From Candidatus Saccharimonas aalborgensis (GTDB lineage Bacteria > Patescibacteriota > Saccharimonadia > Saccharimonadales > Saccharimonadaceae): 32,000 nucleotides of DNA. Position 1 is the stretch's first letter; each line of letters opens with the position of its first letter. The notes below the pieces were generated by a model. It was not told the DNA's origin. It made no database searches and saw nothing but the letters and a program-made list of their open reading frames with translations. Below, piece by piece: positions 8,261 through 16,441 of this stretch. The position numbers and the translations under genes are program-made. The stretch is from assembly GCF_000392435.1 (NCBI RefSeq), contig NC_021219.1, positions 810,001 to 842,000 on the forward strand, given 5' to 3'.

Positions 8261-8268
8261 ATTACTTA
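8261..8268. repeat. Left copy of the 8-bp target-site duplication ATTACTTA
   Basis: Identical to 16434..16441 and directly abuts the outer end of the left inverted repeat. Confidence 0.8.
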
Positions 8269-8296
8269 GGCAATTATATACTTGATGTCACCAAAT
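8269..8296 (+). repeat. Left terminal inverted repeat of the IS1595-family element
   Basis: See the mobile_element entry. It begins GGCAATTAT, which fits my recollection of the GGnnATTAT-type ends in one IS1595 subgroup (to be checked in ISfinder). Confidence 0.75.
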
Positions 8297-8329
8297 CACA
8301 CTAAAGGCGGCTATTCTTGAAAAGTAAAG

Positions 8330-8560
8330 CTACCTGTCATTTTCTAAATCTTCGATCTCTTTGCGTTGATCTTTGACCCACTTTGCAACTTCGTTATTCG
8401 TCATAGGCGGGGCTTGCGACATTTCTTTTACCGCGTCCTGAAAAGCAGCGCCAACTCTTACGCGGCGCTCATTTTCGCGTACAGGCTTTTCTTGATCGGC
8501 TTTAATTTGAGCCTCTAGCTCCTTGATCTCTGCCTTAGTCGGCTTTTTATCTGTTGTCAT
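8330..8560 (-). CDS. Small charged/coiled-coil hypothetical protein (76 aa), cargo of the IS element
   Basis: ORF track 8330..8584. I moved the start to ATG 8560 (MTTDKKPTKAEIKELEAQIKADQEK...). No family recognised. Confidence 0.45.
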   Translation of the reverse strand: MTTDKKPTKAEIKELEAQIKADQEKPVRENERRVRVGAAFQDAVKEMSQAPPMTNNEVAKWVKDQRKEIEDLENDR

Positions 8561-8592
8561 GCCTTGATTATAACAAAACGCCACGACATTAT

Positions 8593-9036
8593 TTAGTGAT
8601 ACAATACATATGCACTTTTGCAGACGTCTCGATAGAGCCGCTCTGCTTCTGTCCTGTCAAAAGTACCTGCATCGTAATCAATTATCTTATAGTTAAAGTC
8701 ATCGTATGGCATGACGTACCGCGCATTACCATACCACGGCACTTCATCAAACTTTTTGATGAGTTTTTGCCATAACCTCCCACATTCGGTTTCGTTCATC
8801 AGGCGCATCGTATATATCACGCCACTATGATGCCGGAGGATTGCCATGCAAATGAAATCAAATTGTTGTGCGGCAGGCTCGAGGCCCGCCATATACCGCA
8901 CTGTGTCGACTTCTGGGCCTGACATCTGGTGCTGCTCACCGTTTTTGCCGCTGATGTAGTGGCCTTTGCTGTCGAACCAGTGCGGTTCATCTGGGCGGAT
9001 GTATCTGACTGAAGTGAAGCGAGGGAGATAGAGCAT
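8593..9036 (-). CDS. Hypothetical protein (147 aa), cargo of the IS element
   Basis: ORF track 8593..9099. I moved the start to ATG 9036 (MLYLPRFTSVRYIRPDEPHWFDSKGHY...). No family recognised. Confidence 0.5.
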   Translation of the reverse strand: MLYLPRFTSVRYIRPDEPHWFDSKGHYISGKNGEQHQMSGPEVDTVRYMAGLEPAAQQFDFICMAILRHHSGVIYTMRLMNETECGRLWQKLIKKFDEVPWYGNARYVMPYDDFNYKIIDYDAGTFDRTEAERLYRDVCKSAYVLYH

Positions 9037-9101
9037 GGTCTTAGTGTAGCATCCGATCCCTCTATTCCCATAAATACACCTTAGCGCTATACTAAACAAT
9101 A

Positions 9102-9695
9102 ATGCTTATCCTGCCACGAAAACGTCCGCACTCTATTGCCCGTATTGTTTTGCTTTTGCTTATAGTGTGCCTTCTTCTCGGTGGTGGCTACCTCCTCCTG
9201 CTTGTTTCTGCGCCGGCCATTGCTCCACTTGCCATCAAGTCGATCGATACAAAAACCTTACCTACACCAAAAGTAGGCGATAACCGCATCATCATTCCAA
9301 AAATCGGTGTCAATATACCCTACGGAACAGACGGACTCAACTCGCTCAACCACGGAGCCTGGTGGCGCTATCCAGAGAGAGGCAACCCGATCGATGGCGG
9401 TAATTTCATCATCGCAGCCCACCGCTTCACACTAGAGGGCACCGTTGCCGGGACGATTGAAAAGTCGCCATTCTACAACCTTGGCAAACTCGTGCTGAAC
9501 GACCAAATCCTGATTGACTACAACGGCAAACGTTACACCTATTACGTTGATAAAATCTTTGATGTCAAACCGACACAAACGGAGATTGAGGCGCCGAGCA
9601 AAGATGCGAAACTCACCCTCTATACATGCAGCCTCGGCGGTTCAAGCGATGGCCGGCTTGTTTTGATAGCCAAGCAAGTGATGGCAGCAAACTAA
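9102..9695 (+). CDS. Sortase-family transpeptidase
   Basis: N-terminal TM anchor, catalytic His context NFIIAAHRF, catalytic Cys context KLTLYTCS, and a C-terminal Arg (DGRLVLIA). Confidence 0.8.
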   Translation: MLILPRKRPHSIARIVLLLLIVCLLLGGGYLLLLVSAPAIAPLAIKSIDTKTLPTPKVGDNRIIIPKIGVNIPYGTDGLNSLNHGAWWRYPERGNPIDGGNFIIAAHRFTLEGTVAGTIEKSPFYNLGKLVLNDQILIDYNGKRYTYYVDKIFDVKPTQTEIEAPSKDAKLTLYTCSLGGSSDGRLVLIAKQVMAAN

Positions 9696-9704
9696 CCTCC
9701 AGCA

Positions 9705-14333: not shown

Positions 14334-14444
14334 TTCTTGCTGCGAGTGTTTATATGTGAGTACGACATTCCACCAGGGTTCCTTTTGAGATTATTTGCTA
14401 TCTATTTCTCTTTTTGACAGTGGTGGATGCCTAAGATTTACTTC

Positions 14445-14474
14445 AGTTTAGCATGAGAGGAATGGGGGTGTCAA
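14445..14474 (-). promoter_or_regulatory. Candidate promoter of the DGR target gene
   Basis: The minus strand reads TTGACA (14469-14474), an 18-nt spacer, then TAAACT (14445-14450). This placement would put the (CU)n tract in the 5' UTR. Confidence 0.35.
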
Positions 14475-14502
14475 GGAACTTTGGTTGAATCTGGCGCGGT
14501 TG

Positions 14503-15333
14503 CTACAGCTTTACTAAATCTATCTCTTGCTCCTCGTCTATCTTCTGCCATAACCTACTTGTAGTCGTGGCTTTTTCTAATTGCTCTCGTGTAATCGTCG
14601 CAAACACAATCTCGTCCCACATATCTTCCTCCTCAACTGCCCGCCGTATCTGCTTAGCCAGTTTTGTCTGTGTGCGCTCGTCTGGACAAATCGCCAAGAC
14701 AGTCGGCAGCTCCCCATGCCCATACGGCCAGTCACCATCTGTGGCGTAATGAATGTAATTGCGTATTTTACGCACGCTCACAAAGAACGGCTTGGTATCG
14801 TCCCATACATCAAGAAAGTAGCGTCGTGGACTACCGGTGCCACCGCTTCCTGTCTTCTTGCCTTTGAAGCTCAGAAACAAGTCTGGCTTCCATGTAGGAA
14901 AGTACTCGTATGGTGTGAGCTGGCTGCTCGCAAATGAACGGAGTTTGTCGTCATATATGGCTTGTAATGTCAGGACGGTATCAGCTACGTTGAGGCAGTG
15001 CGTGATGAACTCTGGCGATACGGTTTTGTTTTTGTAGAGAGCTTTTATAGCCCACTCGTTTGTACTATCTGCTGGTAACTGGCGTGCGCCTTTGGGCGTC
15101 AAAAAATACTCCGCTGGTCGTCCTGCGAGCTTGTATGACTTGTTGTAGTGCTTGCTAATAAAGCCGCGTTCTTCGAGTATCTGTAGCTTGTTCTGTATGG
15201 TCTTCTGGTTCGGTTTAAGTAGGTACTTAGCTATTTGTTTACTATTACTGAAACGTACTTTATACAGCCAGTCTAATACCGCTACTTGCTCTAGGTTTAA
15301 GGGTCTTCTATACTTCGGTTCTGCTACTGTCAT
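14503..15333 (-). CDS. Replication-relaxation-family (winged-HTH) protein
   Basis: The N-terminal wHTH-like segment LNLEQVAVLDWLYKVRFSNSKQIAKYLLKPNQKTIQNKLQILEERGFISKHY resembles the Replic_Relax family. I moved the start to ATG 15333 (MTVAEPKYRR). The 41-codon upstream extension in the track is low-complexity and would overlap the transposase gene. Confidence 0.5.
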   Translation of the reverse strand: MTVAEPKYRRPLNLEQVAVLDWLYKVRFSNSKQIAKYLLKPNQKTIQNKLQILEERGFISKHYNKSYKLAGRPAEYFLTPKGARQLPADSTNEWAIKALYKNKTVSPEFITHCLNVADTVLTLQAIYDDKLRSFASSQLTPYEYFPTWKPDLFLSFKGKKTGSGGTGSPRRYFLDVWDDTKPFFVSVRKIRNYIHYATDGDWPYGHGELPTVLAICPDERTQTKLAKQIRRAVEEEDMWDEIVFATITREQLEKATTTSRLWQKIDEEQEIDLVKL

Positions 15334-15440
15334 ACGCTTAGTCACTTTCTTCTTATATTTATATATAAAAAGAGAGGAAAAGAAAAGAAGTGAAAACAGA
15401 TAGAAAGAGTAGTTATAGGTTGGGTATCGATACCAAAGTT

Positions 15441-16385
15441 TTAAGAACGCCTGCAAATGAGGTTCCTGTACATCAGGCGCTTGCCGTCGATGTTATCAAA
15501 CCATACCTCAAAACGCTCGCCGTCAGTCAGTTCGCGCGTATTCCAGCGGAACGTATATTCATCACAGTATAGCTGCAAATGCTTGGCGCTTACATGGTGG
15601 TAAATACCATTGATACCGCGCTTTAGGTGCGACCAAAAGCCCTCTGCGGTGTTCGTACTAGCCATGCCGTTTACAAACTCTTTGACGCCGTGGTTGACGC
15701 TTTCGTGCTTGAAACCAATTTTAGGCAGGGTGCGATACGGCATGTGTTCGTCTGTGTAGATCGTAGCGTCAATAGCAATGTTCTTGCGCGCTAGGTTCAT
15801 GAGCGTAGCGCTACCTGTGTCTTTTGTTGCAATAACGCGTAGGCGGCCGCCACGTTCAACCATGCCGACGACAGGAGCTTTACTATTCTTGCTGCCGTGG
15901 CCTTGTGCGCCTTTGCCAGTAAGAGTCTTAAGTTTCTTGTTGTGGTGCTTGTATTTATCTGAGCCGCCTATATACGCCTCGTCCATTTCAACCTCACCAG
16001 TTAGCTTCTCGAAGCTGCCAGTTTCAAACACATGGCGTATACGTTGGAGCATAAACCAAGCAGTTTTTTGGGTGACGCCAATATACTTACTTAGCTGAAT
16101 AGAAGACACGCCCTTTTTGAGGCTCGTACATAGATAGATCGCCAAAAACCATTTACGGAGCGGTACAGGGCTTTCTTCAAAGATAATACCCATACGGACG
16201 GTAAATGGGTTACGGCAGCTAGCGCACTTCATGCGGCCGCTGGCGAGCTTATAATACTTGATACCTATTTCACCACATTTTGGGCAAGTAACGCCGTCTG
16301 ACCAGCGCTGCTCAAACAAGAACTTTTGACACTGTTCTTCTGTGGCAAATGAGTCGTAGAATTGGATGAGGTTGAATGCTTCCAT
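15441..16385 (-). CDS. IS1595-family (ISXO2-like) DDE transposase
   Basis: N-terminal zinc-ribbon/HTH: FATEEQCQKFLFEQRWSDGVTCPKCGE...KCASCRNPFTVRMGIIFEESPVPLRKWFLAIYL...GVSSIQLSKYIGVTQKTAWFMLQRIR. This is followed by a DDE domain (EVEMDEAYIGG...TDEHMPY...). Confidence 0.9.
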   Translation of the reverse strand: MEAFNLIQFYDSFATEEQCQKFLFEQRWSDGVTCPKCGEIGIKYYKLASGRMKCASCRNPFTVRMGIIFEESPVPLRKWFLAIYLCTSLKKGVSSIQLSKYIGVTQKTAWFMLQRIRHVFETGSFEKLTGEVEMDEAYIGGSDKYKHHNKKLKTLTGKGAQGHGSKNSKAPVVGMVERGGRLRVIATKDTGSATLMNLARKNIAIDATIYTDEHMPYRTLPKIGFKHESVNHGVKEFVNGMASTNTAEGFWSHLKRGINGIYHHVSAKHLQLYCDEYTFRWNTRELTDGERFEVWFDNIDGKRLMYRNLICRRS

Positions 16386-16405
16386 GCCTCTATTGTATCA
16401 GGGGT

Positions 16406-16433
16406 AGTTGGTAACGTCAAGTATATAATTACC
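16406..16433 (-). repeat. Right terminal inverted repeat of the IS1595-family element
   Basis: The reverse complement reads GGTAATTATATACTTGACGTTACCAACT and pairs with 8269..8296. Confidence 0.75.
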
Positions 16434-16441
16434 ATTACTTA
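16434..16441. repeat. Right copy of the 8-bp target-site duplication ATTACTTA
   Basis: Identical to 8261..8268 and directly abuts the right IR. Confidence 0.8.

Follow-up and report, generated by a model that had tools for sequence, protein, structure and literature searches.

Within a 32,000-nucleotide stretch of the chromosome of Candidatus Saccharimonas aalborgensis (hereafter, the window means this whole stretch), a wastewater bacterium whose genome was published in 2013, the segment at positions 8269-16433 is very probably an intact cargo transposon of the IS1595 family that was active recently and that carries a complete diversity-generating retroelement (DGR) module probably captured from a type IV secretion system (T4SS) island. 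The element measures 8165 bp between the outer ends of its terminal inverted repeats, is flanked by pth (7658-8230) and der (16809-18335), and is also present in the closed 1,013,781-bp S. aalborgensis reference genome, in which the transposase is registered as AGL62535.1, the DGR reverse transcriptase as AGL62529.1, the DGR target as L336_0831 and Der as AGL62537.1. An earlier note, made from the letters of the window, had described this segment as an IS1595-family element with a whole DGR as cargo, the transposed unit of which appeared to be the full 8165 bp, and we find that interpretation essentially correct.

The movement of the whole unit can be read from its other copies and from empty sites. 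By using the exact transposase protein as the query against contigs from many samples, the same gene set was located in six genomic contexts, of which four have complete copies and two are cut by contig ends. The complete copies are 8139-8167 bp in length and have identical 26-bp ends, and each is bordered by its own perfect 8-bp duplication: namely, ATTACTTA at the der/pth site, AATAATTA at locus L002, TAAAAATG at L003/L072 and TACTACTC at L005. Copies at different sites match over ~8.15 kb except for the variable repeat (VR) of the DGR and a (CT)n tract, and apart from these two regions they differ at 0-4 positions. Furthermore, when the two flanks were joined across a single duplication copy to predict the empty site, the predicted sequence was found with 128/128 identity in three contigs and with 88/88 identity in eight contigs encoding an identical Der protein; two contigs are common to both sets, and at least nine distinct contigs hence carry the empty site. 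The occupied and empty alleles differ only by 8165 bp plus one copy of the duplication. Since both alleles of der/pth were found, natural populations of one species contain the two side by side. Housekeeping genes flank the element at der/pth, L002 and L005, and the new junctions fall exactly at the 26-bp repeats. Two checks proposed in the earlier note, a search of related genomes for the contiguous empty site and a search for further copies with the same ends, have thus both come out in its favour, and the comparisons show that the whole unit is mobile.

The insertion sites themselves show some regularity. Among 22 duplications (those of the window, L002, L003, L005 and relatives), the A+T content is 90% and 19 of the 22 have TA at one end, while AYCA occurs directly outside the duplication at several sites; these features suggest a weak target preference. 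The copy in L003/L072 (positions 1-9900, duplication TAAAAATG) sits among genes for a serine recombinase, a helix-turn-helix protein, a DUF5681 protein and phage-like proteins, which suggests that it landed inside another mobile element. In the chromosome of S. aalborgensis, a gene for a 926-aa coupling-protein-like protein (DUF8128, TrwB_AAD_bind and TraG-D_C domains) lies ~8 kb from the insertion site; it occupies window positions 1-348 on the minus strand, runs off the left end and was seen in the overlapping locus L011.

The ends are well defined. The inverted repeat on the left (IRL) and that on the right (IRR) agree at 23 of 26 positions and share a perfect core of 14 bp; both begin with GG. 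When a degenerate 26-mer pattern of the repeat was searched with three or fewer mismatches allowed, it was found at two places only in the 32-kb window and in none of 100 dinucleotide-preserving shuffles. No third inverted repeat was detected near the transposase stop codon, where a search allowing up to 12 mismatches gave 11/26 mismatches as the best match, or inside the element, where a search allowing up to nine gave 8/26; also, no third copy of the 14-bp core was found with up to two mismatches. The start codon of the transposase (ATG at 16385) is 48 bp from the outer end of IRR. On these points the earlier note was accurate: its junctions and coordinates, the 23/26 arms with the 14-bp core, the flanking octamer and the 8165-bp unit were all correct on recheck, its single IS1595-type transposase starting 48 bp from the outer end of IRR was confirmed, and its failure to see a repeat beyond the transposase stop is borne out by the mismatch-tolerant searches. 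Its list of genes (sortase, reverse transcriptase, nuclease-like protein, Avd, target, Replic_Relax and transposase) is likewise upheld by Pfam and NCBIfam. The coordinates of all these features are collected in the table.

Table. Features of the element and its borders; positions are those of the window.
Feature	Position	Strand	Remarks
Left target-site duplication copy	8261-8268		ATTACTTA, 8 bp; single copy in empty sites
IRL, left terminal inverted repeat	8269-8294	+	GGCAATTATATACTTGATGTCACCAA; same in all copies, conserved family-wide
Small basic protein, backbone gene	8330-8560	-	76 aa from ATG 8560; 84 aa from GTG 8584
147-aa open reading frame, DGR module	8593-9036	-	168 aa from TTG 9099
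Sortase, N-terminal membrane anchor	9102-9695	+	Pfam Sortase, 62.9 bits
DGR reverse transcriptase, 344 aa	9705-10739	+	RVT_1, 60 bits; IGNYTSQ motif
Template repeat	10891-11079	-	Same strand as target coding strand
CdiA_C-like small nuclease or toxin-domain protein, 128 aa	11168-11554	+	PF18451, 64.4 bits; between avd and template repeat
Probable Avd accessory protein, 195 aa	11620-12207	-	bAvd and NF033474 matches below cut-offs; position and size fit
DGR target gene, 667 aa	12250-14253	-	L336_0831
Variable repeat	12259-12447	-	3' end of target gene; stop codon 12250-12252
(CT)18 dinucleotide tract	14298-14333	read on minus	~45 bp upstream of target start codon
Replic_Relax, 276 aa from ATG 15333	14503-15333	-	Predicted winged-helix domain plus PD-(D/E)XK-like domain; PF13814
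Transposase-Replic_Relax intergenic block	15334-15440		Near-invariant among elements sharing the Replic_Relax type
IS1595-family DDE transposase, 314 aa, N-terminal zinc ribbon	15441-16385	-	Pfam, NCBIfam
IRR, right terminal inverted repeat	16408-16433	-	Plus-strand letters TTGGTAACGTCAAGTATATAATTACC
Right target-site duplication copy	16434-16441		ATTACTTA

Besides being mobile, the element carries a DGR with the marks of present activity. Its reverse transcriptase (RT) contains IGNYTSQ, which conforms to [I/L/V]GxxxSQ; the GxxxSQ motif is described as diagnostic of DGR RTs in PMC3521204. The template repeat (TR) and VR are 87% identical, and all of their internal mismatches (23/23) are located at adenines of TR on the target coding strand. 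TR was invariant in 13 copies, and VR was found in five versions among 11 copies, varying at adenine positions only; between copies, the VRs differ at 16-25 positions. Indeed, different VRs occur even at the same der/pth site (L001 compared with L006 and L015). The frames of RT, Avd and target are intact. On the minus strand the order is target, avd, the antisense of the CdiA_C-like gene and TR, on which the plus-strand RT gene converges. An invariant TR with several adenine-only versions of VR is the signature of ongoing mutagenic homing, and on these grounds the DGR is judged to be active.

The following mechanism would account for these data. A single DDE transposase, presumably the responsible enzyme, would recognise both 26-bp terminal inverted repeats, and the whole 8.15-kb unit would be inserted into A+T-rich intergenic DNA with duplication of 8 bp, in either a copying or a cutting mode. 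In the inserted element, a minus-strand transcript of TR, made downstream of avd, would be reverse-transcribed by RT and Avd with adenine-specific errors, and the mutated cDNA would overwrite the VR at the target gene's 3' end.

The protein that is diversified appears to be exported. The N-terminus of the target (window 14253-14000, minus strand) reads MNQSITQTITVTT..., followed by LANTGE, a membrane segment, a loop rich in Arg and Lys, a second signal-like hydrophobic segment and then THA followed directly by ASA. It is worth noting that a sortase-type sorting signal is here at the N-terminus, not at the C-terminus, and that a sortase gene is nearby. The N-terminal motif is kept in the orthologous targets (L061, L065 and L068), two of which have a duplication of the APNTGF-LANTG type. 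The target would be a secreted or membrane-associated protein, for which a role as a surface adhesin is predicted. The sortase is nearest to the class E/C sortases, with scores below the curated cut-offs. The number of units in the (CT)n tract upstream of the target is 19, 18, 11, 11, 11, 9 or 5 in copies that otherwise match, although assembly of short reads may distort these lengths; the tract may serve to switch the variable protein by slipped-strand phase variation.

The assignment of the transposase to IS1595 is straightforward. It matches PF12762 (DDE_Tnp_IS1595; 152.8 bits, cut-off 27) over the full profile 1-153, PF12760 (Zn_ribbon_IS1595; 43.6 bits, cut-off 25.4) at residues 15-58, and NF033547 (198.9 bits, cut-off 75). 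The hallmarks of the family are the DDE domain, a zinc ribbon in all groups except IS1016, repeats of ~25 bp that begin with GG, and 8-bp duplications (PMC8101967). The catalytic domain, zinc ribbon, 8-bp duplications and GG-initiated repeats are all found in our element. In a plain insertion sequence (IS) the transposase would be the sole gene; nine further genes lie inside the repeats here, and the element is therefore a passenger-carrying IS or transposon, a known category within the IS1595 family (PMC5704250). A composite transposon was considered and rejected, since the 32-kb window contains a single transposase gene and no more than two copies of the repeat. No TnsA/B/C-type gene was found in Pfam scans of all open reading frames (ORFs) of the element, which leaves no ground for a Tn7-like assignment. 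In the plasmid collection, the closest transposases are at most 43% identical and bear no informative IS name. Siguier, Gagnevin and Chandler are said to have distinguished in 2009 passenger-carrying IS1595 subgroups of ISNwi1 and ISNha5 type, whose members reportedly reach ~8 kb, carry unrelated passengers, make 8-bp duplications and have ends starting with GG. The end consensus of the ISNwi1 type, which we take to be ggnnatTAT, fits GGCAATTAT. We know of no DGR, Replic_Relax backbone or Saccharibacteria host among the passenger-carrying IS1595 members.

Relatives of the element are widespread. Transposase scans of species-representative genomes and metagenomes gave ~85 related loci with transposases 68-91% identical, nearly all in Saccharibacteria metagenome-assembled genomes where the organism was named. 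The ends in all of these loci are of one type (GGCAATTATATACTTGACGTTACC or GGCAATTATACGCTTGACACACCC), and the outer end is always 48 bp before the ATG of the transposase. In more than 25 members, a second repeat together with a perfect 8-bp duplication marks the limits of the element; these members range from 2556 to 9717 bp, and the plain ~1-kb form was not found among the ~85 loci. A Replic_Relax gene comes after the transposase gene in nearly all of them. At the other end, the gene for the small basic protein adjoins IRL and reads outward towards pth, and homologues of 54-76 aa adjoin IRL in most of the complete relatives; the 76-aa protein has no Pfam or NCBIfam match, and a Pfam search at E up to 10 returned noise only. 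Since Replic_Relax and the small protein are conserved across the family, they are backbone rather than passenger genes. The order in the family is fixed: IRR, transposase, Replic_Relax, variable cargo (1-8 genes per member), small basic protein and IRL. The earlier note had counted Replic_Relax and two ORFs of unknown function among the passengers, and this part of its reading needs amendment: Replic_Relax and the 76-aa ORF beside the left repeat belong to the backbone, and the 147-aa ORF belongs to the DGR module.

The cargo of the other members is diverse. Three of them (L030, L040 and L054) encode large secreted proteins that end in xPNTG or APDTG, a membrane segment and a basic tail, and in two of the three a sortase gene adjoins; a surface protein with a sortase is thus a recurrent cargo theme. 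Other members carry an M10-like protease, an AAA_21 and DUF4276 pair, YecM with a zeta-toxin-like kinase, an SDR protein, an EamA transporter, a peptidase S51, PLD-like nucleases and CdiA_C-like genes. The AAA_21 ATPase and DUF4276 pair is in a 7352-bp member (L032:9953-17304) and resembles anti-phage defence pairs. Two further lineages have DGRs of their own. A 6883-bp member with the duplication TAAATATA (L052:9953-16835) carries an unrelated DGR, with its TR at 12783-12890 and two inverted target genes that form an 875-nt inverted repeat; the mismatches at TR adenines are 29/29 and 25/25, and the RT frame is broken by ~170 bp of (AGCC)n. A third type of DGR is found in members of 6.6-6.7 kb (L078, positions 20-6658, L110 and L113), in which RT comes directly after Replic_Relax and the target has 782 aa; in L078 TR is at 3526-3644 and VR at 3960-4078, and the mismatches at TR adenines are 24/25 in L078 and 19/19 in L110. 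With unrelated DGRs in two other lineages, therefore, the capture of DGRs by this transposon family is recurrent.

Where the DGR of our element came from is suggested by its closest relatives. The most similar RTs (75-82% identity) are located in orthologous modules that have no IS1595 transposase and whose proteins are 70-82% identical to those of the window. The order in these modules is the 147-aa ORF (in some), sortase, RT, TR, a small CdiA_C-like or NYN nuclease, Avd and a target of 665-680 aa; for instance, a homologue of the 147-aa ORF, 58% identical, adjoins sortase and RT in L065/L066, the sortase in the L065 module is 81% identical, and the Avd orthologues of other modules are 67-78% identical. 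For the 147-aa ORF itself no Pfam or NCBIfam match was obtained. The slot between avd and TR always contains a small nuclease-type gene, either CdiA_C-like (on either strand) or NYN (L061:11472-11855, L065:4776-5306 and L070:3537-3923), whose product could act as an addiction toxin or as a DGR accessory factor so far unrecognised. As these modules occur without the transposase, the DGR module is to be taken as including the sortase, the 147-aa ORF and the small nuclease. In the "surface-protein diversification" kit of the earlier note, these three had been listed as passengers beside the DGR; they instead form one conserved module together with RT, Avd and target. In the T4SS-island-type modules, the sortase gene and the 147-aa ORF each have the opposite orientation relative to RT, with the gene order unchanged (window 8593-9695 compared with L065:2232-3243 and L061:9275-9958); one block inversion cannot account for this.

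In L061-L064 and L068-L070, the orthologous DGR module adjoins a T4SS cluster encoding TrbC/pilin, VirB6-like, PrgI, TraC-like and VirB4 proteins, a CHAP hydrolase and a coupling protein, followed by a Replic_Relax gene (33% identical to that of the window) and a large serine recombinase gene. Given that the module is otherwise found beside such islands, the transposon most probably captured it from one of them, as far as these gene neighbourhoods tell.

Several observations bear on the role of Replic_Relax. The protein matches PF13814 with 63.1 bits (cut-off 25.3) over positions 1-188 of the 191-position profile. An AlphaFold model based on 39 homologues was confident, with a predicted local distance difference test score (pLDDT) of 85.6 and a predicted template modelling score (pTM) of 0.84. 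When the model was searched with Foldseek, MarR-type winged helices matched its N-terminal part, and the type IIS restriction enzyme PaqCI was the only nuclease-type match (E 3.5e-3); comparison with the PDB by sequence and profile gave weak MarR/ArsR winged-helix matches only. Asp151, Asp175 and Lys189 are invariant among the homologues. In the literature, PF13814 has been placed in the PD-(D/E)XK superfamily as a predicted transcriptional regulator (Steczkiewicz et al., PMC3424549) and is the MOB_C relaxase class in CONJscan-based typing (PMC5357655). In a survey across the candidate phyla radiation (CPR), which doubts that CPR T4SSs conjugate, MOB_C relaxases were more common than those of any other class and mostly lay away from virB4.

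Replic_Relax might accordingly be a partner or regulator of transposition, such as a TnsA-like second-strand nuclease or a winged-helix repressor, in a family that moves only within cells. To this we would give a fair hearing and somewhat less than an even chance. The adjoining position of Replic_Relax and transposase in nearly all members, the predicted winged-helix domain plus the PD-(D/E)XK-like domain with its three invariant residues and the published prediction of a regulator (PMC3424549) are in line with it, as is the rarity of relaxases near virB4 in the CPR survey with its doubt about conjugation. An obligate enzymatic partner would, however, not be expected to vary independently of the transposase, and transposases 88-90% identical to that of the window are paired with Replic_Relax proteins only 21-26% identical (L022 and L058; also L021). 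This uncoupling argues for an exchangeable module, not an obligate partner. The classification of PF13814 as MOB_C (PMC5357655) and the homologue in T4SS islands beside the coupling protein and VirB4 also speak against a purely intracellular function.

Replic_Relax is also a candidate MOB_C-type relaxase that would allow the element to be mobilised between cells. The block between transposase and Replic_Relax contains a pyrimidine tract, an ATATATAAATATAA stretch and an GGTATCGATACC palindrome, and it is kept nearly unchanged among elements that have the same Replic_Relax type, although their transposases are only 75-91% identical to that of the window; it may be a promoter, an operator or a transfer origin. 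A bolder proposal, which we regard as tentative and on balance unlikely, is that the family is self-mobilisable: the DDE transposase would excise and integrate the element, Replic_Relax would nick the conserved block, and the elements would ride the T4SSs of Patescibacteria. If so, DGR hypervariation of a sortase-associated surface protein would spread horizontally among Saccharibacteria, some type IV systems of CPR bacteria would conjugate after all, and carriage of Replic_Relax on transposons would explain why the MOB_C relaxases of the CPR survey are scattered away from virB4.

The remaining explanations bear on the DGR and on the unit itself. It is improbable that the DGR is a fossil whose VR differences are old standing variation. 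Activity has been judged here from assembled copies, and Avd scores just under the curated cut-offs; nonetheless, VRs that differ at 16-25 positions in copies that differ at 0-4 positions elsewhere (the microsatellite aside), the confinement of these differences to TR adenines with a TR conserved at 100%, the two copies with different VRs at one der/pth site, and the intact frames of RT, Avd and target are difficult to reconcile with a dead system. That a bigger mobile element (an integrative conjugative element or a prophage, for example) carried ours passively is very improbable: the L003 copy does lie among serine recombinase and phage-like genes and the orthologous DGR modules do lie in T4SS/serine-recombinase islands, but the housekeeping flanks at der/pth, L002 and L005, the new junctions exactly at the 26-bp repeats with 8-bp duplications, and the empty sites that differ by just 8165 bp and one duplication copy all point to the unit as that which moved. 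Least credible of all is an ordinary ~1-kb IS at the right end with a coincidental or relic solo repeat and the DGR as a chromosomal neighbour, since, although most IS1595 members are indeed ~1 kb with the transposase only (PMC8101967), nothing like a repeat follows the transposase stop (11/26 mismatches at best), an identical 8.15-kb block occupies four sites with its own 8-bp duplication at each, the empty sites lack precisely the entire block, and no such short member is among the ~85 related loci. Multiple sites together with empty sites effectively exclude these last two explanations, and an assembly artefact as well.

Several points nonetheless weigh against a cargo transposon that moves as a whole with an active DGR. 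Mobility has been read from sequences by themselves, and the empty sites may be ancestral alleles; also, most of the copies come from short-read metagenome assemblies. The proteins flanking the L002, L003, L005 and L007 copies fall outside the 90%-identity clusters with S. aalborgensis-named proteins, and this cluster membership merely hints that more than one species hosts the various insertion sites. Avd matches bAvd with E 2.2e-9 and 38.2 bits against a cut-off of 40, and NF033474 (DivGenRetAVD) with E 3.6e-11 and 43.3 bits against a cut-off of 80, both below the curated values. The target gave no Pfam match and no significant PDB sequence match, either as the full protein or as its C-terminal 260 aa, and its UniRef name, "Sulfatase-modifying factor enzyme domain-containing protein", is the sole hint of a C-type-lectin or FGE-sulfatase fold in the VR domain. 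Finally, the direction of transfer between T4SS island and transposon is our deduction from the distribution of the modules.

The significance of the element lies in what natural data document here through its ends, duplications, empty sites and several insertion sites: an 8-kb DDE transposon moves with a complete, active DGR as its cargo. Hypermutation of a surface protein would thereby itself become a trait able to move between genomes. As a compact natural cassette, and the smallest self-contained vehicle of a DGR, the element may be of practical interest for engineered targeted diversification. Furthermore, it represents a widespread and apparently undescribed transposon family of Saccharibacteria, which shuttles surface proteins with sortases, proteases and toxin-like or defence-like genes and carries at least three unrelated DGRs; the family bears on how ultra-small epibionts with genomes of ~1 Mb vary their cell surface, and its conserved Replic_Relax ties it to the debate on type IV conjugation in CPR bacteria. 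The interest of the case thus comes from the natural evidence for whole-unit mobility and diversification, from the breadth of the family, from the recurrent capture of DGRs and from the relaxase-like backbone gene.

With regard to novelty, the earlier note knew of no DGR described as cargo of a simple IS-type transposon. This was too strong as a general claim, with a DGR in a Tn7-type cargo position already in PMC3521204; what does appear undescribed is a delimited IS1595-type carrier. In the literature as far as it was covered, which was incompletely, we found no description of the element, of its family or of an end-delimited DDE transposon moving with an active DGR, and no paper linking a diversity-generating retroelement with IS1595, with Saccharibacteria and a transposase, or with Saccharimonas aalborgensis; the only paper naming both Saccharibacteria and IS1595 was irrelevant.

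Among known systems, the nearest in architecture are tISCpe8 and MTnSag1 (tISSag10), which, like our element, have an IS1595-type transposase, repeats of ~25 bp, 8-bp duplications, A+T-rich targets and an internal passenger; besides these two, no mobilisable element of the IS1595 type was known in 2017 (PMC5704250). They are 1.7-2.0 kb in size, carry one resistance gene and lack a relaxase (PMC5704250), whereas the element described here has 8.2 kb, Replic_Relax, a conserved small end-proximal gene and a seven-gene DGR module. As for the cargo, it is established that phages, plasmids and conjugative elements can carry DGRs (bioRxiv 2024.11.15.621889 and PMC5758913). The Legionella LdtA DGR, as cited in PMC5758913, and the pilus-adhesin DGRs of Bacteroides (bioRxiv 2024.11.15.621889) reside on integrative conjugative elements and likewise diversify a bacterial surface protein aboard a mobile element. 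Their vehicles are, however, 40-100 kb in size and use a site-specific recombinase, in contrast to the small DDE transposon with its repeats and 8-bp duplication found here. According to Dore et al. (2024, PMC10907252), the DGRs of CPR bacteria are also commonly accompanied by transposons. The hitch-hiking of a DGR on a DDE-type transposon has likewise been proposed by Schillinger et al. (2012, PMC3521204), in whose text a DGR of Vibrio sp. RC586 is in a Tn7-type cargo position and that of Shewanella pSbal02 is near a transposase. As far as that text goes, the Vibrio case is one of proximity only, with no ends, duplications, empty sites or multiple sites reported, and it concerns a different transposon family and a different phylum.

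Two further comparisons can be made. Paul et al. (2017) are cited elsewhere for transposons next to the DGRs of CPR bacteria, and the Hankyphage, a transposable phage of Bacteroides named in PMC12135933, has a DGR that targets a phage protein on a ~40-kb Mu-like virus integrating by transposition; our element, in comparison, has no virion genes. In terms of classification, therefore, the element is not a new category and joins two known kinds: namely, the passenger-carrying transposon of the IS1595 family and the DGR on a mobile element.

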